From: a virus
Lineage: Duplodnaviria; Caudoviricetes
Length of the DNA stretch: 60,202 nt
Strand: one strand, 5' to 3'
Virus record (IMG/VR): IMGVR_UViG_3300004369_000751
Span: 1 to 60,202 of that record
Each line of letters starts with the position of its first letter. Within the stretch, counting starts at the first letter, position 1. The notes below the pieces were generated by a model. The model ran no database searches and was not told where the DNA came from. It saw only the letters and a list, made by a program, of their open reading frames with translations. Shown piece after piece: positions 6,339 to 60,202 of this stretch. A program made the translations under genes and the position numbers.

Positions 6339-6733
6339 TGGCCTACACTAAGCCCGAGCTGCGTGAACGCTTGAAGAATCAAGTGATGCGTTCCGGTGAC
6401 GGAGGGAAGCCGGGGCAGTGGTCAGCACGTAAAGCTCAGATACTTTCGAAGAAGTACGAAGATGCCGGTGGTGGATACTCCGGGTCCAAGACAAAAGCTC
6501 AAAAGAGCCTAAGCAAGTGGACTAAGGAGGATTGGGGAACCAAGAGCGGCAAGCCATCTACCCAAGGCCCTAAAGCCACCGGGGAGCGTTACCTCCCGAA
6601 AGCAGCAAGGCAGTCGTTGTCATCCAAGGAGTATGCGGCTACCTCTGCAAAGAAACGGTCGGACACAGCAAAGGGAAAGCAGTTTAGTCAGCAGCCAAAG
6701 TCAATAGCAAAGAAAACCTCAAAGTACAGATGA
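6338..6733 (+). CDS. DUF5872-like basic protein
   Basis: YTKPELRERLK...GGKPGQWSARKAQ...YEDAGGGY...SLSKWTKEDWGT...ERYLPK. Confidence 0.8.
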   Translation: MAYTKPELRERLKNQVMRSGDGGKPGQWSARKAQILSKKYEDAGGGYSGSKTKAQKSLSKWTKEDWGTKSGKPSTQGPKATGERYLPKAARQSLSSKEYAATSAKKRSDTAKGKQFSQQPKSIAKKTSKYR

Positions 6734-6760
6734 GTCTCTTCGAAGAGACTCTTTTTTTTT
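6732..6760 (+). terminator. Terminator formed by 20-bp palindrome copy 1 plus T9
   Basis: GAGTCTCTTCGAAGAGACTC followed by TTTTTTTTT, then -7 TAAATTTG at 6762-6769. Confidence 0.75.
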
Positions 6761-6788
6761 GTAAATTTGTAATCTAAAACCTTTTGAG

Positions 6789-6881
6789 ATGAAATCAGTT
6801 CCTTGCACACACAAAGTTAAGGCCGCTACCTCTTCCAAGAAAATGGGAGGTAAGATGTCTTACGGTTCAAAGAAAAAATAA
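6789..6881 (+). CDS. 30-aa basic peptide (not in the ORF track)
   Basis: MKSVPCTHKVKAATSSKKMGGKMSYGSKKK; fills the gap between the promoter and ORF 6885. Confidence 0.6.
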   Translation: MKSVPCTHKVKAATSSKKMGGKMSYGSKKK

Positions 6882-6884
6882 GTT

Positions 6885-7175
6885 ATGGCCGAAAAGTCAA
6901 AGATGAGCTGTAACCGGCCGGTTCCATCGGACCGTCCGGGGAAGAAGCGTATGGTTAAGGCTTGTGCCAATGGTCAAGAAAAGCTGTTGCACTTTGGTGC
7001 AAAGGGGTATGGCCACAACTATTCTGCTGCGGCTCGTAAATCTTTTAAGGCTCGCCATGGATGCGATACGGCCACCAACAAGTTGACTCCTAAGTATTGG
7101 GCTTGCAAGAATCTTTGGGCCGGCCCGGGTGGGTCCACTCAGAGCAGTCCCAAGGGTAGGAAAGGAAAATATTAG
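6885..7175 (+). CDS. Conserved basic viral protein (DUF5754-like)
   Basis: KKRMVKAC...LHFGAKGY...RKSFKARH.CD...PKYWACKNLW. Confidence 0.75.
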   Translation: MAEKSKMSCNRPVPSDRPGKKRMVKACANGQEKLLHFGAKGYGHNYSAAARKSFKARHGCDTATNKLTPKYWACKNLWAGPGGSTQSSPKGRKGKY

Positions 7176-7187
7176 TATATTTGTCGT

Positions 7188-7370
7188 ATGAAACTGAGCG
7201 AGAAGAGCAAAGGTTTTGGCGATACGGTTGACAAGTTCACCACGGTAACAGGGATTAAGAAAGCTGTGAAAACAGTTGCCGCCTCTGTGGGTGTTGAGGA
7301 TTGTGGCTGTGAGGCAAGGAAAGACTCTTTAAATCGTATGTTTCCTTACGACGTTAAAAAACAAAGATAA
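7188..7370 (+). CDS. Small conserved phage protein
   Basis: SKGFGDTVDKFTTVTGIK...DCGCEARKDSLNRMFPY; -7 element ends 4 nt before the ATG. Confidence 0.8.
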   Translation: MKLSEKSKGFGDTVDKFTTVTGIKKAVKTVAASVGVEDCGCEARKDSLNRMFPYDVKKQR

Positions 7371-7855
7371 TGGCATACTTAAAGTTACAAGTTGGTCGGG
7401 CTCTGCCGGTTGTTCTGAGCGACACCATCAACATTCCTAATCCATCTGCGCCGGTTGGTTCCGGAGCTACTACCGGTACCGGTGGTGGTGGTACTCACCT
7501 TATTGATTCAAGTGCAAACTTCATTACTCAGAACGTAAGGATTGGTGATATCATCTACAATCTTACTGATGGTACTGCTGCAACTGTTTCGAGCATTTTA
7601 AATGCAACGACCATTGTTTGTAGTGCTGCGATATTTTCTGCGAGTCCAAAGAACTATGGCGTGTATCCATCGGCTGCAAATGAAAACGGATGCGTTCTTT
7701 ATGTTGGTACTGCCGGGGATGTTAGGGTTTTGACGATTGGCGGAGACACTGTTACCTTTACTGCTGTTCCGGCCGGCACGTTTATTCCTGTAAGTGTAAA
7801 GAGAGTTTACTCTGCCGGAACCGTAGCTGCTGCAAGCATCTTAGCTCTTTGGTAA
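7370..7855 (+). CDS. Head spike base protein-like (RcGTA Rcc01079 family) with an inserted beta domain
   Basis: LYVGTAGDVRV...TVTFTAVPAGTFIPVSVKRVYSAGT. Confidence 0.7.
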   Translation: MAYLKLQVGRALPVVLSDTINIPNPSAPVGSGATTGTGGGGTHLIDSSANFITQNVRIGDIIYNLTDGTAATVSSILNATTIVCSAAIFSASPKNYGVYPSAANENGCVLYVGTAGDVRVLTIGGDTVTFTAVPAGTFIPVSVKRVYSAGTVAAASILALW

Positions 7856-7856
7856 T

Positions 7857-20987: not shown

Positions 20988-21007
20988 GCGTCTCTTCGAA
21001 GAGACTC
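20988..21007. repeat. 20-bp palindrome copy 2
   Basis: GCGTCTCTTCGAAGAGACTC immediately after the stop codon. Confidence 0.95.
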
Positions 21008-36600: not shown

Positions 36601-39600
36601 TATGCGGAGGCTTGGTCAGATTGATGCTGAGACTGAGCAGAGGATTCAGAGGAATGTTGGATTGAGAAGGGAGTCCAAGGACTTGTTGTCTGTTGGTGAC
36701 AATGGAAAGATAGCTTCAAAGGATTCCAAGCTACAAGCAAGGATGATGGAGCTGATGGCTGCACGCGATGAGATGTCATCTACGGACAACCGTCGTGAGG
36801 TGTACCGAAACTACATAGCTCAGGTGAACGAGGAGCTGAGGGAGATTGCAGAGACCAAGAAACTCCGGGCCCCGGAGAATGCTGTGAACCTTTCTACCAT
36901 GAATGCTCCTACGTCAGCACCCGGCATACCTAAGTACAGCATCAATGGTCGCTCTATGACCAAGGCAAACTTTATGGATGCCGTTGGAAAGATGTCGAAG
37001 TCAAGGTTTATGCGTTCTCGCATTGTTGTTGACAATGATGAGGCTACCACCGGTGAGCTGAACCAAAAACTTATAGACAAAGGATTCATAACTAAACCAA
37101 AGACAGATGCCATTCAAGAGCAAAGCGCAGCGCAGGTATCTCCACAAGTTTCAGCCGCAGTTGGCGAAGGAGTGGGAGAGCAAGTACCCGGTCAAGAAGA
37201 AGTTGCCGGAGAAGTTGAACAAGAGCGTCTCCTCGAAGAGACGCAACAGCAAGTAGAGCAAAGTCGTGGTAGGCTGAGTGAGTTAGAGGCTGCTATTCCG
37301 GCGGCTATGGAGGTTACTCCGGAGGTTCTTGTTCAGGCAACCAACAATGAGTTGGCACCCGAGCAGTTGGATGGGGTGTTGTCCTCTATTGCTGACGATA
37401 TCATATCTGAGACTGAGCTAAGTCCTGAGCAGGACGCGTTGGTATCTGCGAACAAGGCCCGGGTTGATGAGTTGGTTTCATTGAAGTCTGAGCAGGAGGC
37501 GTTGAGCTCCGAGGTCAATGACTTGGAAACTATGCTGAGTCAAAGTGGTGGGTTTCAGTTCCGGGCCGGGGATGGTGTTAAAACCACAAGGGATGCAGCT
37601 TGGGATTCTAAGACTAAGGAGGAGCTTCCGGCTTCGAGCTTTGAGAGTGACGAGGCTTTTCAATCTACTATTCGCGATGGTCAGTGGGGTATGCTTACTG
37701 CGGAGAATCCTGATGCAACACAAGTATCTGATGCGGAGAATAAACAAGTAAATGAGCGTGCGGAGGAGTGGTTACGTAGCCGGGGATACAATCCTCAGCG
37801 AATCTTTGGGAAGTATGGCAACTCTGAGAACAGCTTTTTTGTTGAGGGGTTAAGCACAGAGGATGCTGTTGAGTTTGCCCGGGAGTTTTCTCAAGAGAGC
37901 GTAGCTACGGATAAGGGTCTTGTGTATCAAGATGGCAAGATGAATCCAAGGCAGAAGGGTCAAGAGACTTTTGCTCCGGCAGATGATTTTTACAGCACGA
38001 TTAAGATTGGTGACAAGCTGTCTGACTTCTCTGTATCGTATGACTTTGATGAAAAAACAGAGAGCGGAGTTAAGCCTGCTCCAAAGAAAGAAGGGAAAAC
38101 CGCTGTTGAGGGGGAGATTACTTTATATCATTCTACGCCAAGTAATTTTACTGAATTTAGAGTTATTGGGGAGAATGACGGAAAGACAGAATCTCAGTAT
38201 ACAGAACTTGGTATACACTTAGGAACTGAGGAGCAAGCTAAAAAAAGAGCCGAAACAAAGAGAATACCAAAAGAAAAACAAAGAATAATAAAAGTTAAAA
38301 TCAATCCTAAAAAAGTAATAAGAGTTACTGATAAGGGGAGGTGGACTTTATCTACATACAAAAACATACTTTTTGAGTTAGGCTTAATACAAGATAAAAA
38401 AGAAATCAAATCTTTTGAAGATGTTTTAGCGGTTCTAAAAGACAATAATATTGATGCCTTTGTTTACGATAATAAGTATGAAGGTAAAGGGGATTCTTAT
38501 ATTGTTTTTGATAATAAAAATATAGAAATAGAGCAATCCACCGGGGAGAATCCCTTGCAAGATGTGGAGAGTACAACTAAGGCGTTGGAGGGCGTGGATA
38601 CAACCATTATTGAAAAACCTTTTGGTGTAATGTATCATGGTACTGCAAGTCAATTTGATTTACCAAGCAAAAAAGAAATTGGAAAAGGTATAGGAGTATC
38701 AAAATTTGGAGAAGGATTTTACGTAACAACATCTAAAGAATCTGTAGATAAATATTATGGGTTAATAGCAGCCGCAAACTCAGCATTTCAAGATTTATAT
38801 CCTGATTCAGCTTCAATGTCAAACGCAAAAGAAACAAATTCATTTTTTAATCTGCAAATGCTTTATGATGCGTTACTTATTGATGGCACAAAAGAATCTG
38901 CATTAAAATCAGTAAAGAATAATCTTTCAGGGAAAAAAGCTGAAGCTGCTATAAAGTTAATTAACAATACATTTGATAAATTAAAAGTAAAAAAATTCAC
39001 ATTAAATAACGATAATATTGTAGATTTTGACCAACCCATTGCAGGGTCAAAATTTGATAGTGTTATTGATGAAAAGGATAGACCGGAAACATTTGGTGAA
39101 TTATTTGAAGATTTAGTAGAAGGAAACATAATACAAAATTATTTCGGTGAATATAAAAAAGGGTTTGATGAAAAAAGTGCAATAAGAAAAGCAACAAAAA
39201 TTTTAAAAGGTTATGGAATAGATGGGCTATCGTACAATACTAAAAAAGTAATCAATGAAGAATTAAAACTACCATATGATGTAAAAGGGGAAAAAGATTA
39301 CGTTATTTTTAATACCTCTGTTTTAAAACCATTTACCAATAAAAACATCGCCCAAGCCTACCACAAAGCCAAGGCAGACAATTCAAACCCTGAATTAGTA
39401 AAGGCGGTAGAAAGTTTATTTGGTGCTCCAAAGTCCGGGCCTCAGACACGCATTGACACAAAGTTAGAGCAGGTCCAAGAGATTGATGAGAATGCTGAGC
39501 TCGAAAGAATCGTTGGTGAAATGAATGAGTTGGATAGTCCACTCGTAGACACATCTGCCCAAATTGAATCAACAGAAGGTGCTTCAACAGATGTTCAAGA

Positions 39601-45507: not shown

Positions 45508-45688
45508 CTCTTCCTTTTTGAATGATTATGTTTAGGTCATCTATAATTGCTTGGGCTTCCAACTTTGCCTTGGGCCAATCTTTATCTATCATGTGCTCAT
45601 AGAGCTCATTAAGATAGTCGTGAAGGGTGTTGGTGAACCTTGTCACCTTCGCAACCCTTTCTTTTTCTTTTGGTGATTGCTTTGTCAT
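45497..45688 (-). CDS. Hypothetical protein
   Basis: ORF overlapping both neighbours in the operon. Confidence 0.7.
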   Translation of the reverse strand: MTKQSPKEKERVAKVTRFTNTLHDYLNELYEHMIDKDWPKAKLEAQAIIDDLNIIIQKGRDAL

Positions 45689-46188
45689 AGTCCGTTGAGT
45701 ATTCTGTTCAGTTTTAATATAAACTCTTGTTCTTTTCCGGGATAAACTCGTGCTCGTATCGTTGCAAAGATATCATCAAACCTTGAATTTTTTGCATTTT
45801 CTTGTTCAATTTTTTCTCTTAGCTCTTTGTTTTCTTTCTCGATGTTTCGAATGTGGTCTACGATGTTCTCGACATCTTCTGTATACCATTTTGATTTAGA
45901 ATCGTTCTCGAGTATTTCTTTGCAGGTCAGATATTTTTCTTGAATTGACTTTAGTTTAAGGTCATGTTCTGCACTGCGTATGTAATGAATTACGCTTGCG
46001 TGTCCCACACCTAAGATTTTTCCTATGTGGATGTAGGTGTATCCTCTTTCTCTTAGGATTGTTGAGAATACCTGACGTGCTGAAACGTAGTCTTGCTTTC
46101 GTGTTCTCTTCTTTATTGAGTCTATGTTGAACACATTCTCCACAATTTGAATCAGTAACGTATCGTCAAAAAAAACTTGATTGTTCAT
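45685..46188 (-). CDS. DnaA C-terminal-like HTH protein
   Basis: TRKQDYVSARQVF...GYTYIHIGKILGVGHASVIHY. Confidence 0.75.
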   Translation of the reverse strand: MNNQVFFDDTLLIQIVENVFNIDSIKKRTRKQDYVSARQVFSTILRERGYTYIHIGKILGVGHASVIHYIRSAEHDLKLKSIQEKYLTCKEILENDSKSKWYTEDVENIVDHIRNIEKENKELREKIEQENAKNSRFDDIFATIRARVYPGKEQEFILKLNRILNGL

Positions 46189-46433: not shown

Positions 46434-46668
46434 TTTTGTTTACTATTTCTACGTGTCCGGAAGTTTCAATCCACACCTTTGCACCGCATGAAAGCGGCTT
46501 ATCGTGTGAGTAGATTATTCTTGCTGCTTCCTTTCCATCTTGGCCATATATTATGGCTTCGTGTGCGTAGTCATTGCTTTTGTATGTCTTGCAGGTAAGC
46601 ACAGGTCTGTTGGCACCATCTTTATTTGCTTTGATGTTGTGCTGATTTACATGGATTATTGTTCTCAT
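46399..46668 (-). CDS. Conserved phage hypothetical protein
   Basis: IIHVNQHNIKAN...PVLTCK...KPLSCGAKVWIET. Confidence 0.75.
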   Translation of the reverse strand: MRTIIHVNQHNIKANKDGANRPVLTCKTYKSNDYAHEAIIYGQDGKEAARIIYSHDKPLSCGAKVWIETSGHVEIVNKNAENRTADTSQ

Positions 46669-46681
46669 GGTTTTTGGATGT

Positions 46682-48145
46682 TTAAAGTGTTAAATGTTTC
46701 TTAAAATGAGAAATTGTGTAGTCTTTTTTCTTGCTTACAGCCTTGTAGATTTCATCTTCAATGCCATCCTCAGAAAAAATCCAATAGATGTCGCTCTCCA
46801 ATCTGTCCTTCGTTGTCATCCGGTCTCGGCTCTGCCAATAACTCGTGGCACTGAAGTCAATGTTGAAGTAAACTAAAGCGTCAGCCTGCCTCAAGGATAT
46901 GCCCTCCCTTCCACTTACAATCTGAAGGGCTATCGACTTTTGCGTCTCTTCGAAGAGACTCAAATCTGTGGTAAGCTCATCGCCAAACACCTGAGTCAAA
47001 GCACTCAGCTCCTCCTTGAACTTGTAGAAGATGCCAATCTTCTTGCCGGCAAAGTGATTCTTTATGAACTCCGCTTTGCTTAGGTCAAAGGTCATAGACT
47101 TTCCGCTCTCAAACTTTACCGTTCCGGAGTACATCTGATGTAACTTTTGCATCAACTTCACCGGTGTGTCAGCCAAGATTACCTCATCCTTACCTTGAAG
47201 AACCAATTCCTTCTTAAGCCTTTCAATCATAGCATAAGTCGAGTCCTTCATCCTAACCCTCAGAATGTGCTCCTTTGTTTGCACAACAAAGCCTGCTTGC
47301 TTCTGACTATAGTTGATGGTGTATGGCTCCATTGCCTTTATGATTTCCTCCTTTCCTCGGCTGTAGTCTTTTATCATCACAGAGTTTATCATCTTGGTCT
47401 TCACATCAATGTACGCGTCAGCAAAACGATAGAATGATTTGAAAGAAGAGAATGGGTTGCCGGGGATTCCGTACACCTGATGGTACATCTGAGAGTACGA
47501 CTCCGGTGTTGGTGTTCCGCTCAGGAGAATCACCCGAGGTCTGTGCTTTGCAATCAAATCGCGCACGTCCTTAGCTCTGTTGCTTGGCTTGGGGAAAGCA
47601 CCAAGGCTGTGTGCCTCATCGCAGATGATGACATCCCAACTCTTCTGTTCAACCTTGTGAAGACTCTCGTAGTTGATGGTATCCATGTGGAACTCAGGAG
47701 ACAGCGTAGCGTAGTCACTCTCAATGCTGCCGATTGCTTTCTTCTTGGTTATAAACAGAACAGACTTAGCACCAATCTTCCGGCAGATGCCGAGACTTGT
47801 GAGAGTCTTGCCGGTTCTCACCTCCATGGCCAAGTACAAGAAGTCATGCTCAAAGAGAATCTGAGCACCCTTCTCAATGATGCTTAGCTGATAGTCTCTG
47901 TACTCAAATGAATTCTGTTTCATCTCGGGTAGGTTTTGATAGTGTTCAATGCTTGCACGTATTGATTCAATTGTATGTGTAGGCACGTCATGCTTGAGAG
48001 CCACGACCTCAACCATCTTCCGGCCTTGCTTGACCTTCTTTGTTTTGGTTTTGGTCGCGACACCAAGCAGTAGCCGGAGCAGCTCCACCATCATCATGTT
48101 GCTGTATCCGGGCCTCCTCTCTATTATCTTAATCTCGTTCATCAC
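46682..48145 (-). CDS. SF2 (SNF2-like) helicase
   Basis: YRDYQ, EVRTGKT, DEAH, LSGTP, SGREGISL, QSRDR. Confidence 0.9.
   Translation of the reverse strand: MMNEIKIIERRPGYSNMMMVELLRLLLGVATKTKTKKVKQGRKMVEVVALKHDVPTHTIESIRASIEHYQNLPEMKQNSFEYRDYQLSIIEKGAQILFEHDFLYLAMEVRTGKTLTSLGICRKIGAKSVLFITKKKAIGSIESDYATLSPEFHMDTINYESLHKVEQKSWDVIICDEAHSLGAFPKPSNRAKDVRDLIAKHRPRVILLSGTPTPESYSQMYHQVYGIPGNPFSSFKSFYRFADAYIDVKTKMINSVMIKDYSRGKEEIIKAMEPYTINYSQKQAGFVVQTKEHILRVRMKDSTYAMIERLKKELVLQGKDEVILADTPVKLMQKLHQMYSGTVKFESGKSMTFDLSKAEFIKNHFAGKKIGIFYKFKEELSALTQVFGDELTTDLSLFEETQKSIALQIVSGREGISLRQADALVYFNIDFSATSYWQSRDRMTTKDRLESDIYWIFSEDGIEDEIYKAVSKKKDYTISHFKKHLTL
46942..46961. repeat. 20-bp palindrome copy 4 (inside the helicase gene)
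   Basis: GCGTCTCTTCGAAGAGACTC, read as LSLFEETQ on the minus strand. Confidence 0.95.
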
Positions 48146-50532: not shown

Positions 50533-50686
50533 TTTAATGATGTTTTTATGACACTTAAGTAATTGATTATTAATTATATGTCGATTATGTCGATTTTAAA
50601 GTAAAAGTATATTTAAAAAATACTATTACAGAGAAAGAAAATAAGAGAGAGAGTAGGAGCGTTTATATTTTCGACATTTCCGACAT
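50516..50686. other. Origin-like cassette, copy 2, overlapping the primase start
   Basis: ATGTCGA at 50578 and 50587, TCGACAT at 50671, CCGACAT at 50680, AT-rich spacer. Confidence 0.65.
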
Positions 50687-50742
50687 GAGAAAAGAATGGG
50701 GGAACGAATCCGCTCCCCCTATCTTTTTAGATTTGGCTTCAG

Positions 50743-51033
50743 TTAGAACGGAAGTCCATCGCCATCCACATCAGGAGCATGAGCAGGTTCAGGTGCTGAC
50801 CGAGTCGGTGCTTGGTCTCCACCCTTCGGTTGCCACGTGTCGAGTTCGATGTAGTAGTTACCGCTTCGCGCTTGCTTAATCTGAAGGTTCACCCATCCCT
50901 TCCGCTCGTTGTCCTTCATGAACTGAATGGCCTCATCGACCTTCATGGATAGGCTTCCAACAACGAAGTTGGGTGCTGACTCTTGACGCTTAAATGAAAA
51001 GCCGTCTGCGAAAACTTTTTCTTGTTCGCTCAT
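50743..51033 (-). CDS. Single-stranded DNA-binding protein-like
   Basis: Start at ATG 51033 (MSEQEKVFADG); acidic C-terminal tail DVDGDGLPF. Confidence 0.75.
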   Translation of the reverse strand: MSEQEKVFADGFSFKRQESAPNFVVGSLSMKVDEAIQFMKDNERKGWVNLQIKQARSGNYYIELDTWQPKGGDQAPTRSAPEPAHAPDVDGDGLPF

Positions 51034-51123
51034 ATAAAATGGTATTTGTTTTCCCCTCAGATAAATTTGTGATTGTTCTCCTCTCTTGAGCCCAAGGGGT
51101 TCGCCCAATTGATTTGATTTTTT

Positions 51124-51143
51124 GCGTCTCCTCCAAGAGACTC
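51124..51143. repeat. 20-bp palindrome copy 5
   Basis: GCGTCTCCTCCAAGAGACTC directly after the exonuclease stop codon. Confidence 0.9.
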
Positions 51144-51887
51144 TTAGAGCAACTCCATTTCAATGTAGTGGTTGTCCACGCTATCGAATGCTGTCGGCCC
51201 GAAGTATCTGTTGTAGACCTCTATGGCCTGCTCAACCTTCTGCTTGCCGAACATAAGGAACTCCTCTGTTGGCCGGAACACACCGAGCTGTGCTGTCTCC
51301 TTGTCAATGACGTAGAACACCAATGGCTTACCGAATAGCTGCTCGTAGAGCCAAGCCTGAGAGTCGTAGTTGTACGCTCTTGCAGAGTACTTGAATCGGT
51401 GTATGTCTCCGGTGGTCTTTAGGTCAATGAGAATGTTCTCAGAGACAATGTCCGCCTTGCCCTTCCAAAGTTGACCAAGAACCTCCTTCACCTCCGGAAC
51501 TTCGTACTGATTTCCCGGCCGATAGATTTCATCGTAGAAGTGGATGTTGGCTTTCATCACCGATACAAGGTGCTCGATGTTCTCCTTCTCGTGCTGAAGA
51601 AGTGCTATCTCAAGTCCGCTCTCTGCAATAAACTGCTTGTAGATGTTGGTGTTTCTTGTGGACGCATCAACAAATGGAACTGACTCTGCCTTGTCAGGCT
51701 CAATGAGTAGCTGATGAAAGTACCTTCCCTCCAACAAAGACTTGGAATCGTCTCGACGTTTGCGGTAGTCCTTCGGGTTCGCGAGAAGAACTCCTATGTC
51801 GGAGTTCGACAGGAATTTCCTGCCGAACTCTCCATAGTAGTCAGAATCATCTTGGAGTCTTTGGATGATTTGCTGTTTGTTCTTCAT
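51144..51887 (-). CDS. Exonuclease VIII-like PD-(D/E)XK nuclease (DUF3799-like)
   Basis: LSNSDI...GRYFH...KGKADI...IDLKTT...YNYDSQAWLY. Confidence 0.85.
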   Translation of the reverse strand: MKNKQQIIQRLQDDSDYYGEFGRKFLSNSDIGVLLANPKDYRKRRDDSKSLLEGRYFHQLLIEPDKAESVPFVDASTRNTNIYKQFIAESGLEIALLQHEKENIEHLVSVMKANIHFYDEIYRPGNQYEVPEVKEVLGQLWKGKADIVSENILIDLKTTGDIHRFKYSARAYNYDSQAWLYEQLFGKPLVFYVIDKETAQLGVFRPTEEFLMFGKQKVEQAIEVYNRYFGPTAFDSVDNHYIEMELL

Positions 51888-52519
51888 GACAATAGCTCCT
51901 TAATTTTGTTTGCAACCGCAGGAGCAATGGTGTACTTCCGCTTCAACTGAGCCACAATCTTATCGTATCCCAACTCCTTGTTGGCATTGACGTAGGACAC
52001 AACTCGCTCCCAATTCTCTGTGCCGGTCTTCAGTGACTCAAGGGCAGCAGTGCCACCTGTTGGGTTTGATTGCACATTCGCAGAGGGACGTGGGTTGCCC
52101 ATGGTCGGGGCAGCAGCCGGCTCACCGGGGATGTCCTCTCCGCTCCATAGTTGGATGCCGAGTCCATGCATGGCAATTGCCTTGGCTGTTGAACGCTGAA
52201 TGGATTTGTTTACATCCGTTGCAGTAATCTTCTCAACAGGTATTGGATTGTTGCGGTAGTCCATGATTGGAAGGTAGTCGATGTGCTCAATGCCATCAAC
52301 GGATATTCCAACCTTTACGTATCCTGTTCTGCCATCGGTGAAGAAGTTGAGCCCTGTCGCAGGGTCTTCATACACGTTCCGATTTGCGCTCGGATAGTTT
52401 GACTTTAGCATAGACCATGCCCATGCCCATGAGAGGTAGTCCAAGCCACCTTTGTTCTCGATTTTGTCCCTGAAAGGAACGCTGCTTAAGGTCTCGAAGA
52501 CCGATTTGGTTGTTGCCAT
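51884..52519 (-). CDS. sak: Sak / DUF1071 Rad52-like single-strand annealing protein
   Basis: LDYLSWAWAW...LPIMDYRN...DVNKSIQRSTAKAIAMHGLGIQL. Confidence 0.85.
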   Translation of the reverse strand: MATTKSVFETLSSVPFRDKIENKGGLDYLSWAWAWSMLKSNYPSANRNVYEDPATGLNFFTDGRTGYVKVGISVDGIEHIDYLPIMDYRNNPIPVEKITATDVNKSIQRSTAKAIAMHGLGIQLWSGEDIPGEPAAAPTMGNPRPSANVQSNPTGGTAALESLKTGTENWERVVSYVNANKELGYDKIVAQLKRKYTIAPAVANKIKELLS

Positions 52520-52529
52520 ATGAATGGAT

Positions 52530-52829
52530 TTAAATGGTTACTGAATTGATTACGTCATCTAAGAAATAGCGGAACTCTTTTTGGTGTGATGACTTTGCCA
52601 CCTTGTTGATTCCATGGATGATTGTTGTGTGAGCCATGTCAATCCCTGCGTACTGAAGTAGCATTGTCTTGATGTCGCACACTCGAATCCCTTTCCTTTT
52701 ACACAGATAGAAGATTGTTTGTCGGGCATCTGACGCGTACCTGCTCCTGCTGTTGACTAACTCGTCTTGGCTGAGTTCGTACATCTCTTTGACGCGCTCA
52801 ACGATTGATTTAAAAACCTTTGAGTTCAT
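52530..52829 (-). CDS. DnaA C-terminal-like HTH protein
   Basis: SRSRYASDARQTIFYLC...HTTIIHGINKV; -7 TATCTTTG at 52879-52886 (minus). Confidence 0.75.
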   Translation of the reverse strand: MNSKVFKSIVERVKEMYELSQDELVNSRSRYASDARQTIFYLCKRKGIRVCDIKTMLLQYAGIDMAHTTIIHGINKVAKSSHQKEFRYFLDDVINSVTI

Positions 52830-52910
52830 TTGATTTTAGTTGTTGTGCGGATGTCAAAGGGCGCATCCGCTTCGCCACCAAAGATAGGTAATAGGGTGGT
52901 AACCACCAAA

Positions 52911-53288
52911 TTATCCGTAAACTAATTCACCGAGAATCATGTACTGAAAAACAACGTCGGCCTCACAAGCATCGCAGTATCCGTTTATAAGGTTTTGTAT
53001 TGAGATTTCGATGTCTGAGTCTTGAAGTAGTTTTGATAAGTTTTTCATAGCAACGCTTCGATACAGAACAGCTATCTCTTCTGTTGGCTCTTCTGCATCA
53101 ACTACTTTTAGTACATGGCCATCACAGAAGTTCCGATAGACTCTAACTGAGAATGGCTCATCAGGATAGCGATTCTTCAGGGTTTCATAGGTTCTTTCAC
53201 TGACATCAAACCAATGGTTTGAACCACCTTCAATTGCTGTAACGAAGAGAGACTCAAGGTCAATTTCTAATTCGATTGTTGTTTTCAT
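52911..53288 (-). CDS. Hypothetical early protein
   Basis: TAIEGGSNHW...DACEADVVFQYMILGELVYG. Confidence 0.8.
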   Translation of the reverse strand: MKTTIELEIDLESLFVTAIEGGSNHWFDVSERTYETLKNRYPDEPFSVRVYRNFCDGHVLKVVDAEEPTEEIAVLYRSVAMKNLSKLLQDSDIEISIQNLINGYCDACEADVVFQYMILGELVYG

Positions 53289-53315
53289 GTTGTGTGTATT
53301 TGATTAATTGTTTAA

Positions 53316-53371
53316 CAAAGATTGCAATAAACTTCGACATATGCAAGTGCCAAATGTCAATTAAATGTTAA
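53316..53371 (-). promoter_or_regulatory. Early-class promoter
   Basis: AATCTTTG, TTG 20 nt upstream, GTTAA half-site at the same offset as in the other early promoters. Confidence 0.6.
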
Positions 53372-53385
53372 TATTTCAGAAAAGA

Positions 53386-53688
53386 TTATTTTCTACCCTG
53401 AACTCCGTAGTACATACTGAAGTAGTCCTTGTTTATAGCAACGAACTTTGGCTTGATGTTCCGGTTCAGAAAATCAACAAGGTACAGGAACTTGAAGTTG
53501 TACTCTTCAACCAATGCATTGTGGTCAAAATCTTCTTCATCACAATTACTGCACACATCTTCCCAAAATTCTGACTCAAGTTGATGTATCCTTTCAACTA
53601 TGTTCTCGACCTCGTACTTTATATCACGTTTCATCGACCTGTTTGTCGGCTTTTTGACAAGGCTTATCATACTTATGAAATCACTCAT
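53386..53688 (-). CDS. Hypothetical protein
   Basis: ORF with an A-rich TIR. Confidence 0.7.
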   Translation of the reverse strand: MSDFISMISLVKKPTNRSMKRDIKYEVENIVERIHQLESEFWEDVCSNCDEEDFDHNALVEEYNFKFLYLVDFLNRNIKPKFVAINKDYFSMYYGVQGRK

Positions 53689-53711
53689 GGTATTTGTTTT
53701 TAATTGTTAGT

Positions 53712-53772
53712 TTAAATTCGTACCCTATCGGTAGTTAAATGTATGGTTTTGGTTAAATTCGTACCCTATCGG
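53712..53772. repeat. 20-bp direct repeat TTAAATTCGTACCCTATCGG, two copies
   Basis: Copies at 53712-53731 and 53753-53772. Confidence 0.9.
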
Positions 53773-53795
53773 GGGTTGTTTTGCCTATGCATTAG

Positions 53796-54188
53796 TTATG
53801 TGATATTTTCCATAACGAGTTTAAACACTTCCTTTGTTTCTTGTTCTGCCCAACTAATTATTTCTTCTTCCAAATCCATATTATAATTGTGCATTTCTAA
53901 GGAGTGGTGCATAAGTTCGTGAAATACACCGCCATAGGTATCATAATTATCTGCACACCTTTGAAGGTTAATAAACACAAATCTTGCATCTCCAAACTTG
54001 TAATTTTGGTCATCTTTAGGTACATAGTTTGCTAATCCCCAAATATAAGCATCATCTTTAGTGTTGGAATACAAAACACAATCCTTGTAATTAAGACCGT
54101 GCATTTCTTCTACTCCATAGTGCCAAAACAATTCACACGGACTTTTGCCGAGTAAAAGGGTGTATTTATCTCTTTTTATTTCTACCAT
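53796..54188 (-). CDS. HExxH-motif (zincin-like) hypothetical protein
   Basis: VFHELMHH...EEE; AT-rich. Confidence 0.7.
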   Translation of the reverse strand: MVEIKRDKYTLLLGKSPCELFWHYGVEEMHGLNYKDCVLYSNTKDDAYIWGLANYVPKDDQNYKFGDARFVFINLQRCADNYDTYGGVFHELMHHSLEMHNYNMDLEEEIISWAEQETKEVFKLVMENIT

Positions 54189-54292
54189 TGTAAAGTTTTG
54201 TGGAATTAAGCATTATAATGTGATTTGGCCGTTCTTTTCTTGCGTTAACAAGCATAAAGGCAGACAAATCATAGTATGGTGTGGTTTAAAAG

Positions 54293-54321
54293 TCTAAAGA
54301 ACGTCTAAAGAACGTCTAAAC
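54293..54321. repeat. Tandem 11-bp repeat GTCTAAAGAAC (about 2.6 copies)
   Basis: gtctaaagaacgtctaaagaacgtctaaa. Confidence 0.85.
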
Positions 54322-54392
54322 GCTTTGCATTTTAGACATTTATTGTGCCATATAAGGGGTGAAACATTGGGAGTTTATCCCTTTAATGACAA

Positions 54393-54507
54393 GTTAGTAG
54401 TCAGGACAGGACTCGAACCTGTATTGCACGTCTGCATCTGTGGAGCTCTATCTCAAGCGTGTCTATTTAGACCTAACACAAGCGTCTACCAATTTCGCCA
54501 CCTGACT
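54393..54507 (-). ncRNA. Pseudo-tRNA / tRNA-like RNA with an oversized, non-canonical anticodon-variable region
   Basis: Acceptor AGTCAGG/CCTGACT, D arm GCGAAATTGGTAGACGC, T arm ACAGG-TTCGAGT-CCTGT, 3' ACTAAC. Confidence 0.75.
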
Positions 54508-54547
54508 AATGATAGCAAATGTATGAAATGTTTCAACCAAATGCCAA

Positions 54548-55030
54548 CTATAGATGAGATTTTACCTTCATCCAATATGATTCAGTAGATGCCTTAGACA
54601 TTCCATTGGGCCCTCCGTTCCAACACCGAGCAATTGACTCGTAGTCCAAGTCCTTGTGGTGCTTCTCCACAATCACCATCAGCATATCCACAGACTTGTC
54701 GCAGTCCCACCTGTCATTCATGGTGTATACTTCAGAACCCAATAGTCTGTTGACCTCCCTGACCATGATTGGTCTTATCTGCAAACATCCAACTGCATCC
54801 TCCCTTCTATTGTATGCACATTCGTTGCCCCTACTCTCAACCTGAATCATGCCTGCAATCAATGTGTTAAGAGAATCAACAATCAATCTCGTTTCTGAAT
54901 CAGCAATCATTGTAGAGTCTCTTCGAAGAGACTCTGTTTTGATTGGTTCATGCATTGGATTGTTAGGAATCACAACGAATCCAAAATAGCTGCCAATAAT
55001 TCCGGCAATGATAAAAGAGATTGTCTTCAT
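54548..55030 (-). CDS. Membrane-anchored lysozyme-like / lytic transglycosylase (i-type lysozyme-like)
   Basis: N-terminal hydrophobic segment; IQVES.G...AVGCLQI...ARCWNGGP; contains palindrome copy 6 at 54915-54934. Confidence 0.75.
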   Translation of the reverse strand: MKTISFIIAGIIGSYFGFVVIPNNPMHEPIKTESLRRDSTMIADSETRLIVDSLNTLIAGMIQVESRGNECAYNRREDAVGCLQIRPIMVREVNRLLGSEVYTMNDRWDCDKSVDMLMVIVEKHHKDLDYESIARCWNGGPNGMSKASTESYWMKVKSHL

Positions 55031-55290
55031 GGTCTTGTGAATTTAATGGTTAATGAATTTGTGCTTGAGCCAACAAGTATGGCTATCTCTGATGAAGGAT
55101 GAGTCTCGTGATACAGGTCATACGTCCTGACCTTCTGCTCCACGTCCATGGAATGCCAAAGCCGAAGGATGCTGCCCATACCCATACGCTCATCTAAGTC
55201 CAAGATGTCTCGCTTGTCAGCCATGCTCAGGCTGAAGAACCACCTGTCAATTTGACCTATCAGTGGCTCAATTATGTTACGAAAAATCAT
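55027..55290 (-). CDS. Hypothetical protein
   Basis: Overlap-coupled ORF. Confidence 0.65.
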   Translation of the reverse strand: MIFRNIIEPLIGQIDRWFFSLSMADKRDILDLDERMGMGSILRLWHSMDVEQKVRTYDLYHETHPSSEIAILVGSSTNSLTIKFTRP

Positions 55291-55777
55291 AGCTCATCAC
55301 TGCTAAGTGTCCATTGTACTCCTGACCTCTATTGAGAACCCAAGAGTACTCGACAACAGATATTCTTTTTGTGTTCGTAGCAATCAGGTCAATTGTGTTG
55401 TAGCAAACGAGTGCATCGTAAAAGTCTTTGAACACATCATACACATCATCATCTGTGAAGACGTAGTAGTAGTAAATGATGTCTGACTCATCATCCAAGT
55501 GATGAATGTTTGACCAATCGGCCAAGTCCTGCTCTGTCAATGGATAGTAGGTCTTCCTGCCATACAACCCACAGATTGCCTCCCAAAACTTCCGACCTTC
55601 AGCAGATGCTGACCATGGGAATCCCCCAAAAAGTATTTGGTTGCCTCCAATCCATCGAGGATTGTCTTCATTGAGCCAATCTAAGCCTGCTTGTACTCCT
55701 CTCCACTTTAACGTGTTTTGGACAAATGACTCAGCAATTGTCTCTTCTAACTGCGAAATAAAATCAATCGGTCTCAT
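55277..55777 (-). CDS. Hypothetical protein
   Basis: Overlap-coupled ORF. Confidence 0.7.
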   Translation of the reverse strand: MRPIDFISQLEETIAESFVQNTLKWRGVQAGLDWLNEDNPRWIGGNQILFGGFPWSASAEGRKFWEAICGLYGRKTYYPLTEQDLADWSNIHHLDDESDIIYYYYVFTDDDVYDVFKDFYDALVCYNTIDLIATNTKRISVVEYSWVLNRGQEYNGHLAVMSYDFS

Positions 55778-56010
55778 AGGTTTCTGATTATGTTTTGGAT
55801 TTGAATGAATGAAAGGTTTACCTCATCTTCCGACAGGTAGTAGGTAATGCCCATGTCTATTCTGTAGGCTTCATCGGAAACGAATGCTCCGCTTACGTTC
55901 ATAAGAGCATCAGCAAGAGCCACAACGGACAGGTGATGCTCAATTCCATCAACGAAGACTACATACAAGGGATAGGCTTTCCCTTTGAAAATGATTCTCT
56001 CTGTGTTCAT
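55774..56010 (-). CDS. Hypothetical protein
   Basis: ATGA-type coupling. Confidence 0.7.
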   Translation of the reverse strand: MNTERIIFKGKAYPLYVVFVDGIEHHLSVVALADALMNVSGAFVSDEAYRIDMGITYYLSEDEVNLSFIQIQNIIRNL

Positions 56011-56501: not shown

Positions 56502-56520
56502 TTTGATTTAAATTTAAAGG

Positions 56521-56605
56521 TTAGTGTGGCTTTCGGACTCGAACCGAAGGAAGAGTCTCTTCGAAGAGACGCAAATTGCTGCTAATCATTCCGACCATCA
56601 ACCAC
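56521..56605 (-). ncRNA. tRNA-like element B containing palindrome copy 7 (56553-56572)
   Basis: GTGGTT/AGCCAC stem, T arm TTCGG-TTCGAGT-CCGAA, 3' ACTAA. Confidence 0.7.
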
Positions 56606-56609
56606 TACA

Positions 56610-56675
56610 CAAAGGTTGGGAATGTATGGGACATTAGCAATAGCCAAATGCCCCATAATTCTTAAGAATTGTTAA
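56610..56675 (-). promoter_or_regulatory. Early-class promoter
   Basis: AACCTTTG, TTG 20 nt upstream, CTTAAGAATTGTTAA at 56661-56675. Confidence 0.65.
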
Positions 56676-57728: not shown

Positions 57729-58034
57729 TTATTTGCGATTGTCTTCAATTTCTCCATTGGAAGTCTCATAGTAGAGTACGTTACCATTGGCATCTTGCTG
57801 ATACTTTCCACAATAGCCATTGGAATCTTCAAAGCAGAGGGCTTTGCCATTGGCATCGTACTGCCGCTTTATCCAAAAGCCATTGGAAGTCTCAAAGTAG
57901 ATTACGTTACCATTGGCATCGTATTCGTACTTCTCCCAATAGCCATCGGAATTCTCAGAGTAGATTACTTTGCCATTGGAATCATAAAGCCGAAAGGGGA
58001 ATTCTTTTGCATTTAATTGATTTGCAATTGTCAT
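57729..58034 (-). CDS. YD-like 21-aa repeat protein (4 units), paralog of 58563-58931
   Basis: YDxNGxVIYxExSxGYWxKxx repeats. Confidence 0.85.
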   Translation of the reverse strand: MTIANQLNAKEFPFRLYDSNGKVIYSENSDGYWEKYEYDANGNVIYFETSNGFWIKRQYDANGKALCFEDSNGYCGKYQQDANGNVLYYETSNGEIEDNRK

Positions 58035-58064: not shown

Positions 58065-58134
58065 GTTAGCTGTGGCATCGGAATCGAACCGACCTTGCGT
58101 CTCTTCGAAGAGACTCTCAATCACCATGGCCACA
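58065..58134 (-). ncRNA. tRNA-like element C containing palindrome copy 8 (58097-58116)
   Basis: TGTGGC/GCCACA stem, T arm GTCGG-TTCGATT-CCGAT, 3' GCTAAC. Confidence 0.75.
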
Positions 58135-58149
58135 AGACCAATGAGCATC

Positions 58150-58562: not shown

Positions 58563-58931
58563 TTATTTGCGATTGTCTGTGATGTGGCCATTGGAATTCT
58601 CAGAGTAGATTACTTTGCCATTGGCATCGCGCTGATACTTCGCCCAATAGCTATTGGAATCTTCAAAGGAGAGGGCTTTGCCATTGGCATCGTACTGCCT
58701 CTTTATCCAAAAGCCCTTGGAATCTTCGTAGTAGATTACTTTACCATTGGCATCGTATTGATACTTTCCCCAATAGCCATCGGAATCTTCAGAGGAGAGT
58801 ACTTTGCCATTGGAATCGTACTCTAACTTCCTCCAATAGCCATCGGAATCTTCATAGTAGATTTCGTTCCCATTGGCATCATAAAGCCGAAAGGGGAATT
58901 CTGTTGCATTTAATTGTTCTGCGATTGTCAT
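58563..58931 (-). CDS. YD-like 21-aa repeat protein (5 units)
   Basis: Nearly the same termini as 57729-58034 with one extra 63-bp unit. Confidence 0.85.
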   Translation of the reverse strand: MTIAEQLNATEFPFRLYDANGNEIYYEDSDGYWRKLEYDSNGKVLSSEDSDGYWGKYQYDANGKVIYYEDSKGFWIKRQYDANGKALSFEDSNSYWAKYQRDANGKVIYSENSNGHITDNRK

Positions 58932-58961: not shown

Positions 58962-59030
58962 GTTAGCAGCAGCATCGGACTCGAACCGATTTATCGTCTC
59001 TTCGAAGAGACTCTAAGAACCTTCACTGCT
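58962..59030 (-). ncRNA. tRNA-like element D containing palindrome copy 9 (58994-59013)
   Basis: AGCAGT/GCTGCT stem, T arm ATCGG-TTCGAGT-CCGAT, 3' GCTAAC. Confidence 0.75.
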
Positions 59031-59031
59031 T

Positions 59032-59051
59032 CCATCTCTCGGAAGAGACTC
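59032..59051. repeat. Degenerate palindrome copy 10
   Basis: CCATCTCTCGGAAGAGACTC overlapping the stop codon of the 48-aa gene. Confidence 0.7.
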
Positions 59052-59196
59052 AGGCAAACAGATGCGTCATAATGACAGCATAGGCAAAGCCAATCAGGAT
59101 GATGCCCATTCCGATAACATAGGATTGGATTGTCGCTCTGCGATTCTCTGCGCGGAGTCTATCTTGCTCTCGCTCAAGGTCAAATGAATTGTTCAT
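59050..59196 (-). CDS. 48-aa protein with a C-terminal transmembrane helix
   Basis: ATG 59196 lies downstream of the promoter at 59230; MNNSFDLERE...YVIGMGIILIGFAYAVIMTHLFA. Confidence 0.7.
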   Translation of the reverse strand: MNNSFDLEREQDRLRAENRRATIQSYVIGMGIILIGFAYAVIMTHLFA

Positions 59197-59229
59197 GGTT
59201 AAATGGATTAAATGGTTAAAAGGTATACA

Positions 59230-59295
59230 CAAAATTACTTCAGAACTTCGACATATGCAATAGGCAAAGATGCCGATTTTGTTAAGAATTGTTAA
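59230..59295 (-). promoter_or_regulatory. Early-class promoter
   Basis: TAATTTTG, TTG 20 nt upstream, GTTAAGAATTGTTAA at 59281-59295. Confidence 0.7.
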
Positions 59296-59303
59296 AGGTA
59301 GCA

Positions 59304-59323
59304 GAGTCTCCGCGAAGAGACTC
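59304..59323. repeat. Palindrome copy 11
   Basis: GAGTCTCCGCGAAGAGACTC, intergenic. Confidence 0.9.
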
Positions 59324-59343
59324 CGCATACCTTCACACATTCA

Positions 59344-60202
59344 TTACTTGGCAGCTACATAGAAGTGAGCAGGAGACTCGGCCTGATAGCTAAACCCTAC
59401 CTTCGCAATTAGCTTGCTCACAGATTCGCTCAGCTCTCCGCCATCCCCAAACACTACCTGACCTTTGTGCTCCACGTACTGCAAGTTATCGGTGTACAGC
59501 ACGTTTCCGCGTCCGACCTTGGTCTCTATTCCAATGGCATTCAAGACCTTCTGTAGCTCCTTGGCAGATACCTTGGCCTTGGTCGGTGTTTTGGCCTGCT
59601 CAATTTCCTTAATCCATTCCGCCTTGGCCTTAGCCTTAGCCTTAGCATCAGCAATGGACTTGGCCTGCTCCTTGGCCTGCTCCTTGGCATCAGCATCCGC
59701 CTTTGCCTTGGCATTCCGCTCATCCACAATCGGCAGCAGTGCAGTCAATTGGTCAATGACTTGCTGAAGGTCAGCGGATGTGAAATCTCCCCTAAATGCG
59801 ACCTCACCATTGGAATTTAATTGAACCTTTACAGATGCATCGGATAAATGCCAAGTTAGACTGCCGACATTGGTAGGTTTACCTTCACCTTCACCTTCAC
59901 CTTCACCTTCACCTTCACCTTCACCTTCACCTTCACCTTCTTCCGTCTCTTCGAGGAGACTCCTTTTGCTGAATTCCAATAGGTTGGTCACTGACCTTTC
60001 CACAGCAATTCCGCTCTCCTCTTCCCGAAGGTTTGCCCAATCGTTAAACTGCTCTAAGGTCTCACCTTCCAAAGATGCTGCCTGAATTAACTTGTAAGCC
60101 CATGACCGACTGAACCCATACAAAGGGAAAAGGTCGGCCTTTTTCAGACCTTCGGACTTAAGGGCAGCTTTCCCTTCCTTGGTGTCTGCCCAATTAGTAC
60201 CT
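59344..60202 (-). CDS. C-terminal part of the origin-spanning early protein (poly-EG linker, Ala/Lys-rich segment)
   Basis: Open frame continues across the circular junction to ATG 218; contains palindrome copy 12 at 59943-59962. Confidence 0.8.
   Translation of the reverse strand, partial: GTNWADTKEGKAALKSEGLKKADLFPLYGFSRSWAYKLIQAASLEGETLEQFNDWANLREEESGIAVERSVTNLLEFSKRSLLEETEEGEGEGEGEGEGEGEGEGEGKPTNVGSLTWHLSDASVKVQLNSNGEVAFRGDFTSADLQQVIDQLTALLPIVDERNAKAKADADAKEQAKEQAKSIADAKAKAKAKAEWIKEIEQAKTPTKAKVSAKELQKVLNAIGIETKVGRGNVLYTDNLQYVEHKGQVVFGDGGELSESVSKLIAKVGFSYQAESPAHFYVAAK
59881..59940. repeat. Perfect microsatellite (ACCTTC)10 encoding (EG)10
   Basis: 60-nt perfect hexamer tandem repeat. Confidence 0.97.
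60104..60202. repeat. Terminal direct repeat identical to 1-99
   Basis: Exact match to the window start. Confidence 0.95.

Follow-up and report, generated by a model that had tools for sequence, protein, structure and literature searches.

A lineage-specific palindrome repeated throughout the genomes of podoviruses of the Elemovirus / Cellulophaga phi38:1 kind: candidate sites of a phage-encoded dimeric regulator

Results and Discussion

A repeated palindrome in the phage genome

Inspection of the virus record IMGVR_UViG_3300004369_000751 (Duplodnaviria; Caudoviricetes), a whole phage record of 60,202 bases which constitutes the window analyzed here, revealed 12 copies of a palindrome with the layout GTCTC-N6-GAGAC. 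The phage is a podovirus of the Elemovirus / Cellulophaga phi38:1 kind. The element is real, strongly non-random, clade-wide and evolutionarily constrained, and its specificity has been switched repeatedly. From comparison of the sequences, we tentatively favor the view that the palindromes are binding sites of a phage-encoded dimeric regulator, which would make them global transcription control points similar to stoperators or KorB operators.

The palindrome GTCTC-N6-GAGAC has 11 exact matches in the window, while dinucleotide-preserving shuffles contained 0.06 on average and 1 at most (0 of 100 reached 11). The twelfth copy, at position 59032, has a single arm mismatch (ATCTC). The centers are TTCGAA (seven copies) and CTCGAA, CTCCAA, CGCGAA, TTCGAG and TCGGAA (one each). 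An earlier reading of this sequence (referred to below as the original prediction) had listed 12 start coordinates, shrinking gaps, nearly invariant arms and a variable 6-nucleotide (nt) center, and had proposed a comparison with shuffled controls; all of these features were reproduced, and the enrichment was confirmed. The gaps between successive copies are 14256, 16237, 9717, 4182, 3791, 1638, 1544, 897, 38, 272 and 639 bases.

Bases 60104-60202 duplicate bases 1-99 exactly, and IMG/VR classifies the record as 100% complete, with direct terminal repeats. This 99-base duplication is most simply explained as an overlap from circular assembly, which gives a real genome length of ~60,103 bp and makes the contig "end" and the "origin-spanning gene" artefacts of the assembly junction. 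The plus strand (~580-45085) carries GroEL/GroES-like genes, genes for the large terminase, the portal and structural proteins, and the gene of a giant protein of 3804 amino acids (aa); Bacteroidota-type TAnnTTTG boxes are located upstream of many of these genes. The minus strand, from 45073 round to 281, encodes a helicase, a primase-helicase, an exonuclease, a Sak-like annealing protein, an SLT lysozyme-like protein and many small open reading frames (ORFs). Eight of the 12 copies are located at or beyond position 51124, i.e. in 14.9% of the genome (binomial P = 7e-5). The density gradient therefore stands as originally described, but it points to the start of the minus-strand early operon and not to a demonstrated physical end; the proposed role in genome entry or at a first-injected end fails, since the contig end is an assembly junction.

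The phage apparently infects Flavobacterium-like bacteria, i.e. it is a phage of Bacteroidota, and is apparently lytic. Relatives of its portal protein are found in podoviruses of Flavobacterium, Cellulophaga, Tenacibaculum and Maribacter. One uncultured record, MW202828.1, encodes a portal protein with 75% identity and gave a single DNA match (179 bp) among GenBank phages, where no near-identical relatives were found. No integrase or other lysogeny or plasmid-maintenance gene turned up in the 45 ORFs of the window scanned against Pfam (the structural genes were scanned against PHROGs only); this set is referred to below as the scanned ORFs.

Four copies abut or overlap stop codons, as originally noted. 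Copy 1 (GAGTCTCTTCGAAGAGACTC; 6732..6751) overlaps the TGA that ends ORF 6338-6733; T9 and a TAAATTTG -7 box come next, and the copy scored as terminator-like (8 pairs plus a T-tract; fold -12.3 kcal/mol, z = -2.0). Copy 2 (20988..21007) is placed directly 3' of the TAA closing ORF 20238-20987 and has a generic terminator of its own kind, distinct from the palindrome, downstream of it (21013-21033). Copy 5 (51124..51143) is situated directly 3' of the exonuclease TAA, 90 nt upstream of a gene for a protein resembling single-strand DNA-binding protein (SSB). The degenerate copy 10 (59032..59051) overlaps the stop codon of ORF 59050-59340, and its orthologue in a close relative, G016, is perfect (G-numbers denote records and L-numbers loci of relatives).

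Five copies are located inside ORFs, in two reading frames: (i) copy 3 (37225..37244) in the giant virion protein gene (aa 1186, peptide RLLEET), in a slot also filled in G016 and G019, (ii) copy 4 (46942..46961) in the helicase gene (aa 396, SLFEET), in a slot kept across the clade, (iii) copy 6 (54915..54934) in the SLT transglycosylase gene (aa 33, ESLRRD), (iv) copy 12 (59943..59962) in the first early gene (aa 142, SLLEET), and (v) copy 11 (59304..59323; center CGCGAA), which lies 20 nt past the stop codon of the first early gene and also within an ORF of 96 aa, the N-terminus of which lacks conservation in G016. Four of them start at codon position 2, and the SLT copy, whose frame is unlike that of the other coding copies, starts at position 3. 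The four genes and the use of more than one frame had been recognized in the original prediction, to which the 96-aa ORF adds a fifth case. Copies 7 (56553..56572), 8 (58097..58116) and 9 (58994..59013) each form the middle hairpin of a tRNA-like element on the minus strand (~56520-56608, ~58065-58137 and ~58962-59036, respectively).

Distribution and arm types among relatives

The clade is abundant, with relatives of the primase encoded on at least 599 IMG/VR stretches. Among the best 80 primase loci, 34 contain at least 3 copies of a 5-N6-5 palindrome of this family, and many of the others are truncated upstream. The exact 16-mer also matched other viral contigs with several copies each. Palindrome-bearing relatives have 3-20 copies each, and the overall range among relatives is 0-20. 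In whole records, the degenerate pattern GTSTS-N6-SASAC was present in 8-20 copies in 14 records, compared with 0-1 for the pattern read backwards. Five of 24 whole records contain neither this pattern nor another iterated palindrome, G013 and G026 have variant palindromes without a match to the pattern, and the motif is absent from the first 50 kb of Elemovirus NC_055853.

The analogous palindromes in relatives, envisaged in the original prediction, are thus clade-wide, and their arms are lineage-specific. The arms GTCTC/GAGAC are shared by the window, G016, G001, G017, G018 and G002, while GTGTC/GACAC are found in the majority of relatives, GTGTG/CACAC in G025, GTCTG/CAGAC in G015 and GTTCA/TGAAC at L070. 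MW202828.1 carries 14-15 copies of the palindrome GTGTCGTTAACGACAC (43745-55170), and G013 carries a 15-bp palindrome, CGTATTTCAAATACG (49619-55993; four exact copies, five with center variants); in both records all copies are in the early region. The sequence logo of 220 unique instances reads a-GTGTCTT-YR-AAGACAC-t, with no further conserved box within 60 nt on either side. In the primase tree the GTCTC type occurs in four separate lineages, which indicates that the arm types were switched repeatedly.

Conserved slots and re-coded coding copies

The sites of ten genomes were placed on the genes of the window, which revealed recurrent slots. In the early region they are located upstream of and just after the first early gene, and several more between early cistrons. 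Three slots lie within genes, namely those of the helicase, the giant protein and TerL (N-terminal part). The others are found where the convergent operons meet, directly 3' of the exonuclease stop codon, past the major capsid gene, and next to two further genes: near the orthologue of 30645-31055 and upstream of that of 6885-7175. The sites therefore occur on both transcription arms, within long genes and where operons converge. All 8 GTGTC loci examined have a site upstream of the first early gene, and in the five with a marked TAnnTTTG box the site lies ~160-180 nt upstream of that box. The late-region sites of G019 and G024 are spaced at ~6.5-10 kb. The slot of copy 51124 is common to G016, G002, G019 and G025. 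In G001, copies 6732 and 51124 are missing as clean indels of ~14-21 nt, and the helicase-gene and giant-gene copies are degenerate.

Conserved and re-coded copies are present in the helicase, TerL, giant protein, Sak and primase genes. The peptide at the helicase slot follows the arms of the genome: SLFEET is encoded with GTCTC, SVFEDT with GTGTC and SVFEHT with GTGTG, and the SLFSET of G016 matches that genome's own center variant. When 28 loci were typed by their other copies, the helicase slot held the locus' own arms in 22 cases, a non-palindromic sequence in 6 and a foreign type in none. The TerL slot uses a different frame and encodes SLQRD, CLQRH or CVRAH, depending on the genome type. 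These coding copies arise via substitution and not insertion, with an amino-acid cost in two genes and two frames; in the helicase and TerL genes the palindrome is thus preserved even where this alters the protein. The refuting condition of the original prediction included a lack of conservation of the coding copies at synonymous positions in relatives. The outcome speaks for a function, since coding copies are kept and those of helicase and TerL change amino acids to follow the arm type.

Concerted change between close relatives

G016 shows ~91% nucleotide identity to the window, and all 12 sites are collinear. The flanks of the sites are 80-96% identical. Among the arm positions 1 of 120 is changed, compared with 35 of 72 center positions. 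The G016 centers are mostly CGANAA or its reverse complement TTNTCG, in either orientation relative to transcription. The element, center included, is therefore uniform within the genome as a duplex.

Candidate cognate factor

The leading candidate for the factor that may read the palindrome is the product of the first early gene (59344..60201, across the assembly junction to base 281; minus strand), a helix-turn-helix (HTH)-like protein of 346 aa. Within its HTH-like segment, one position is occupied by Gln in all 12 genomes of the GTGTCTT type and in none of the 6 of the GTCTC type, a comparison that ignores phylogeny; the residues in the six GTCTC-type genomes, which span four lineages, are S, S, S, N, E and S. 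The AF2 model of the protein is of high confidence (pLDDT 80.7). A homodimer model scored 0.46, compared with 0.00 for the best control, and its runs showed at least 91% contact agreement with a partner pLDDT of at least 79. The homodimer mark is reached by 20 of 30 proteins whose solved structures are same-chain pairs and by 1 of 23 solved as single chains, counts that hold only roughly here because an alignment of our own was used. The modelling lends support to a putative dimer. The protein, which the original prediction had named first among its candidates as the origin-spanning product, would be the best candidate here too, by its tracking of the arm type and by the homodimer model. Comparison with a protein atlas gave only weak leads (DUF3102, 0.90; Translat_reg, 0.91), with low counts of shared features. 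A (GGTGAA)n-type repeat at 59878-59943, which adjoins palindrome copy 12, encodes an (EG)n linker in this protein.

Alternative candidates are (i) a 99-aa protein with a DnaA domain-IV-like HTH (52530..52829, minus strand), (ii) a 167-aa protein with a similar HTH (45685..46188, minus strand), whose C-terminal half shows weak sub-threshold Pfam matches, and (iii) a 146-aa protein encoded by a lone gene on the minus strand (4701-5141). The recognition helix of the DnaA-C-like proteins contains HTT or HTS mostly with GTCTC arms and HSS mostly with GTGTC arms, with exceptions both ways (L110, L126, G002 and G018).

Proposed mode of action

We propose that the palindrome serves as a stand-alone site (~18 bp) recognized by a factor which is encoded by the phage and specific for this sequence, most likely a dimeric HTH protein acting on the DNA duplex, for which the product of the first early gene would be the best candidate. 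The sites would punctuate the genome, densely between the cistrons of the early operon and singly at module or operon boundaries, and may act as transcription roadblocks or silencers, e.g. in the shut-off of early transcription or in insulation. Specificity would have diversified between lineages in the manner of an immunity type, with all sites of a genome following, and a needed site would be fitted into the local feature, whether coding sequence, the tip of a terminator hairpin or an arm of a tRNA-like RNA. Action on DNA, binding by a protein, a role as roadblocks and the choice of the factor are all inferred parts of this proposal.

DNA duplex versus RNA hairpin

In the 5-N6-5 layout the centers of the half-sites are about one helical turn apart. 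Two of the 10 sites of G017 are hybrids (GTGTC...GAGAC), and at L123/G024 GTGTCT and GTGTCG halves are mixed. The half-sites thus appear to vary independently, which fits a dimeric DNA-binding site.

The main alternative is an RNA stem-loop, transcribed as part of the early and late operons, which could be the tip of a terminator, an intercistronic stabilizer or processing mark, or a stem whose sequence is read by a phage RNA-binding protein or nuclease in the way that lambda N reads boxB, with the tRNA-like RNAs offering the hairpin as stable decoys or cofactors. We regard this as possible, though distinctly less probable than not. It is favored by the placement of the palindromes: 147 of 222 unique instances in relatives fall between ORFs, at a median of 14 nt past a stop codon, with the next ATG at 10-30 nt or 70-90 nt. 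However, of the 147 intergenic copies near replication genes, the stem is not extended in 97 and a T-rich tail occurs in only 8, and in the intrinsic-terminator test a T-tract was clear at 1 of the 12 window copies only (6732, which scores as a terminator), a feature otherwise confined to certain late slots. The hairpin would also have to be tolerated as conserved, re-coded copies in essential ORFs, where terminating or cutting hairpins would be harmful, and its 5-bp stem would be broken in the hybrid-arm sites. Among 49 one-mismatch copies, positions T2, T4, G12, A13 and A15 were never the mismatched ones; 12 transitions would still allow G-U pairs in the sense strand and a further 11 would do so in the antisense strand only, a symmetry that shows no RNA-like signature and no sense-strand G-U bias. 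Finally, both orientations of the asymmetric G016 center are seen, also within the set of three tRNA-like copies of this genome, which argues that the identity of the loop is not read on one strand.

Several observations weigh against a protein-read DNA site, and some of them speak directly for RNA. In the after-capsid slot of 5 of 5 relatives, differing but complementary flanks lengthen the stem, which is followed by a T-tract; this is the anatomy of an RNA terminator with the palindrome at its tip. (In the window, the same slot is occupied by an unrelated generic terminator, 20175-20198.) At the convergent junction, an A-run precedes the palindrome and the stem is lengthened by 2-4 bp in 5 of 5 genomes. 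Seven tRNA-like elements contain the palindrome as their middle hairpin (three in the window, three in G016 and one in G001), and compensatory changes are present in 7 of 17 predicted pairs of their other helices, so that within these elements the palindrome is evidently folded as RNA. The 15-bp variant of G013 (CGTATTT-C-AAATACG) retains the hairpin while altering the spacing of the half-sites by 1 bp, a change that a hairpin tolerates more easily than a protein dimer. Other points concern the regulator itself. The first early protein belongs to no Pfam family and had no fold match in PDB at E <= 0.001 (best E = 0.26); comparison of 54 ORFs of the window with the genomes of 14 relatives revealed no gene confined to motif-bearing genomes; and no regular overlap of the sites with -33/-7 promoter boxes was observed. 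In G001 all late-region and replication-region copies have been lost, leaving, as in MW202828, early-region copies only. These losses, together with the complete relatives that lack the palindrome, imply that the system is dispensable.

Taken together, we read the DNA and RNA evidence as suggesting that the sequence is required primarily at given places in the DNA and is fitted into whatever is present there, with the RNA reading as the less probable one. The preference of the original prediction for a dimeric DNA site over a simple terminator is upheld in so far as most copies are not terminators and the make-up of the element fits a dimeric site. An RNA role is directly visible at some copies, as terminator tips and as arms of tRNA-like RNAs, so that DNA binding stays a proposal.

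The tRNA-like elements consist of an acceptor-like stem, a T-arm (GGTTCGAnTCC) and the palindrome at the position of the anticodon arm; a D-arm is absent. Each is followed by CTAAC and a T-run, and then by the next ATG. The elements of G016 and G001 are located at L130 and L039. ARAGORN detected 0 tRNAs in the window, and Rfam gave no tRNA match at the three palindrome-bearing elements even at E <= 10; the supported parts of these elements are the acceptor-like stem, the T-arm and the palindrome hairpin only, without a cloverleaf with a 7-nt anticodon loop. In each of MW202828 and G013, one palindrome copy is followed by a T-arm-like sequence (GGTTCGA). Two paralogous early genes of the window (57729-58034 and 58563-58931; 73-79% nucleotide identity, with weak matches to RHS/MORN repeats) are each preceded by a palindrome-bearing tRNA-like element, an arrangement that looks like a segmental duplication. 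The only Rfam tRNA match in the window (37.7 bits), which was not called by ARAGORN, is at 54398-54507 (minus strand), where a tRNA-Leu-like acceptor and D-arm are combined with a 38-nt insert in place of the anticodon arm; G019 has a shorter relative of this element, with a small hairpin replacing the anticodon arm.

Comparison with known systems

The stoperators of Cluster A mycobacteriophages (immunity repressor of the L5 gp71 type) are numerous genome-wide sites described as terminating transcription elongation, with a consensus that is specific to each genome and evolves together with the DNA-binding protein of the phage (PMC9283540, PMC6550527). Each is a 13-bp site without symmetry, which a monomer reads and which follows the direction of transcription (PMC9283540). 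The palindromes resemble stoperators in forming many genome-wide copies of one short site, mostly placed in short gaps between genes, with a genome-specific consensus. They differ in being palindromic, in showing both center orientations and in occurring in a phage in which no lysogeny gene turned up in the scans. In the multi-operator test, many genome-wide copies with a genome-specific consensus were found, but not the asymmetric single orientation.

Plasmid RK2 (~60 kb) contains 12 OB sites. Its KorB operators are palindromic, are served by one global dimeric regulator and are spread over the replicon, many of them far from promoters (PMC11790492, PMC13768133). The phage element likewise is a palindrome of ~13-16 bp in several dispersed copies, as are KorB-OB and parS sites. 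It differs in that the phage palindromes also occur within coding sequences and RNA genes, and no ParB/Srx domain of the kind found in KorB (ParB-CTPase family) was detected in the scanned ORFs.

Other systems share single properties with the element. The nut/boxB hairpin of lambda-type phages is also a small interrupted palindrome that closely follows an early cistron, and its sequence varies by lineage in step with the N protein of the phage. These phages possess two nut sites, both active purely as RNA, unlike the 8-20 copies found here on both transcription arms and inside ORFs. REP elements are short, species-specific palindromes after stop codons that can stabilize or terminate transcripts. 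The phage palindromes differ from REP/RAYT systems in that no RAYT/Y1 transposase was found (no domain at threshold in the scanned ORFs, only a weak phrog_9366 match, E = 0.0036), the sequence is no bacterial-genome repeat, and the copies occupy conserved slots. Start-associated (SAS) repeats lie 3-8 bp from start codons. Cluster K mycobacteriophages (SAS/ESAS repeats) contain 11-19 copies of this 13-bp motif; imperfect inverted repeats of 17 bp accompany about half of the copies, and the positions are conserved by gene family (PMC3203893). SAS repeats are asymmetric, unlike the palindromes, and the part of that report available makes no mention of coding copies or arm-type switches (PMC3203893). 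The PeSLs of T4-type phages are composite promoter-terminator motifs at gene boundaries (PMC2839356, PMC4122927), whereas no promoter box travels with the palindrome in the 220 instances, 60 nt either side; TAnnTTTG boxes occur at no fixed distance from it. The element fails the defining tests of a plain terminator, parS/ParB, REP/RAYT, PeSL and an N4-type promoter. No description of such palindromes was found in the literature on Flavobacterium/Cellulophaga or lytic phages, supplementary files being outside the search.

Less probable explanations

It is unlikely that the palindrome is a selfish or structural repeat without a dedicated reader, REP-, PeSL- or MITE-like, homogenized by recombination or gene conversion and sometimes co-opted as a terminator. 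The clean indels of 6732 and 51124 relative to G001, and the variation from 0 to 20 copies among relatives, would agree with such a repeat, as would the orientation-independent concerted change of the centers in G016, which is expected from copying between palindromic arms, and the Sak-like annealing protein and exonuclease encoded by the phage. Against this, the coding copies arose by substitution at an amino-acid cost in two genes and two frames, and the slots are kept across lineages of differing type. Ordinary homologous exchange needs more than arms of 5-7 bp. In addition, the scanned ORFs include no transposase or RAYT-like gene, there is no accompanying promoter box of the PeSL kind, and the palindrome is absent as a host repeat.

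An RNA-guided system, in which the tRNA-like RNAs display the palindrome as a trans-acting guide that pairs with all copies in mRNA or DNA, is a more remote prospect, for which we know of no precedent in phages. A perfect palindrome self-pairs in any orientation, which would explain the within-genome uniformity of 16-20 nt, center included. The tRNA-like elements of the window and G016 (three each) bear the majority version of their genome's palindrome, those of G016 in both center polarities (TTCTCG twice and CGAGAA once), and in several GTGTC-type relatives the palindrome is found directly 5' of a tRNA-like minihelix (12 of 222, compared with 4 in a mirrored control). Most motif-bearing relatives, however, have no palindrome embedded in a tRNA-like element.

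We attach very little probability to centromere-like (parS/matS) sites or to an organizing role in genome entry or packaging. Perfect 16-bp palindromes, some in genes, arranged as one cluster with dispersed outliers, would be compatible with such sites, as would the late-region spacing in G019 and G024. However, no ParB, Srx, partition ATPase, integrase or plasmid-maintenance gene was found in the scanned ORFs, so that the parS type of the original prediction finds no support, the circular assembly means that physical genome ends are not fixed by the sequence, and G001 and MW202828 have early-region copies only.

Four further candidates were rejected. Restriction-site avoidance does not apply, as outside the palindromes GTCTC, GAGAC, GAGTC and GACTC are at least as frequent as expected. 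A host repeat is excluded by 10 single matches of the 18-mer in 185,579 bacterial genomes, i.e. approximately chance level. A composite sigma-type promoter is dismissed since no flanking box is conserved near the palindrome; a sigma-70 promoter scan of the window was at shuffle level (28 vs 26.9 and 29 vs 27.5). An N4-like hairpin promoter for a virion RNA polymerase is contradicted by the lack of a polymerase signal in the giant protein, which has no PDB sequence match and no PHROG match and in which T7-type polymerase motifs (Rx3Kx6-8YG, HD[SAGT] and others) are absent.

Implications

If the proposed regulator exists, the palindromes would represent a clade-wide genome recognition code that has been switched repeatedly and overrides protein sequence in helicase and terminase genes. 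They would constitute a system of the stoperator/KorB kind in apparently lytic phages of Bacteroidota, whose gene regulation is almost unknown, and a natural case of concerted evolution of site and factor, possibly driven by competition between co-infecting relatives. The palindrome type also offers a marker by which these uncultured phages can be sorted into specificity types, and tRNA-like RNAs with a replaced anticodon arm are of interest on their own. Should the RNA-guided explanation hold, it would amount to programmable, lineage-specific self-recognition (immunity or shut-off), with an address rewritten genome-wide, including in protein-coding genes.

Other features of the genome

The giant virion protein gene (33671-45085; 3804 aa) has DUF3293 (aa 1342-1411) as its sole Pfam match, and an HEFGH zinc-protease-like motif is present in the block of aa 2401-2600. 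An endonuclease VII/HNH-like gene (4205-4756, minus strand), found only in the window, G016 and G001, probably encodes a mobile homing-type nuclease. The SSB-like gene mentioned above (50743-51033, minus strand) encodes a conserved protein of ~97 aa, whose acidic tail has D-(L/I/V)-P-F at its end and so resembles the bacterial SSB tip; the product is probably the phage single-strand DNA-binding protein, and a longer TTG-started ORF at this gene is probably not real.

Several repeats were also identified. An 85-nt repeat (74% identical), containing ATGTCGA(A/T)(A/T)ATGTCGA, occurs upstream of GroEL (1185-1269) and of the primase gene (50516-50600) and may represent a shared regulatory or promoter region. 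A 46-nt family, D9, is present in the early arm at 53336-53381, 56630-56675 and 59250-59295, with a conserved TTTGnnnnTTGCnnATGTC on the minus strand. The divergent region between the transcription arms contains tightly packed GCATGACAG-like units (496-577) and may be an origin or packaging region; at the equivalent place, GTGTC-type relatives have C-rich repeats, which adjoin their most upstream palindrome.

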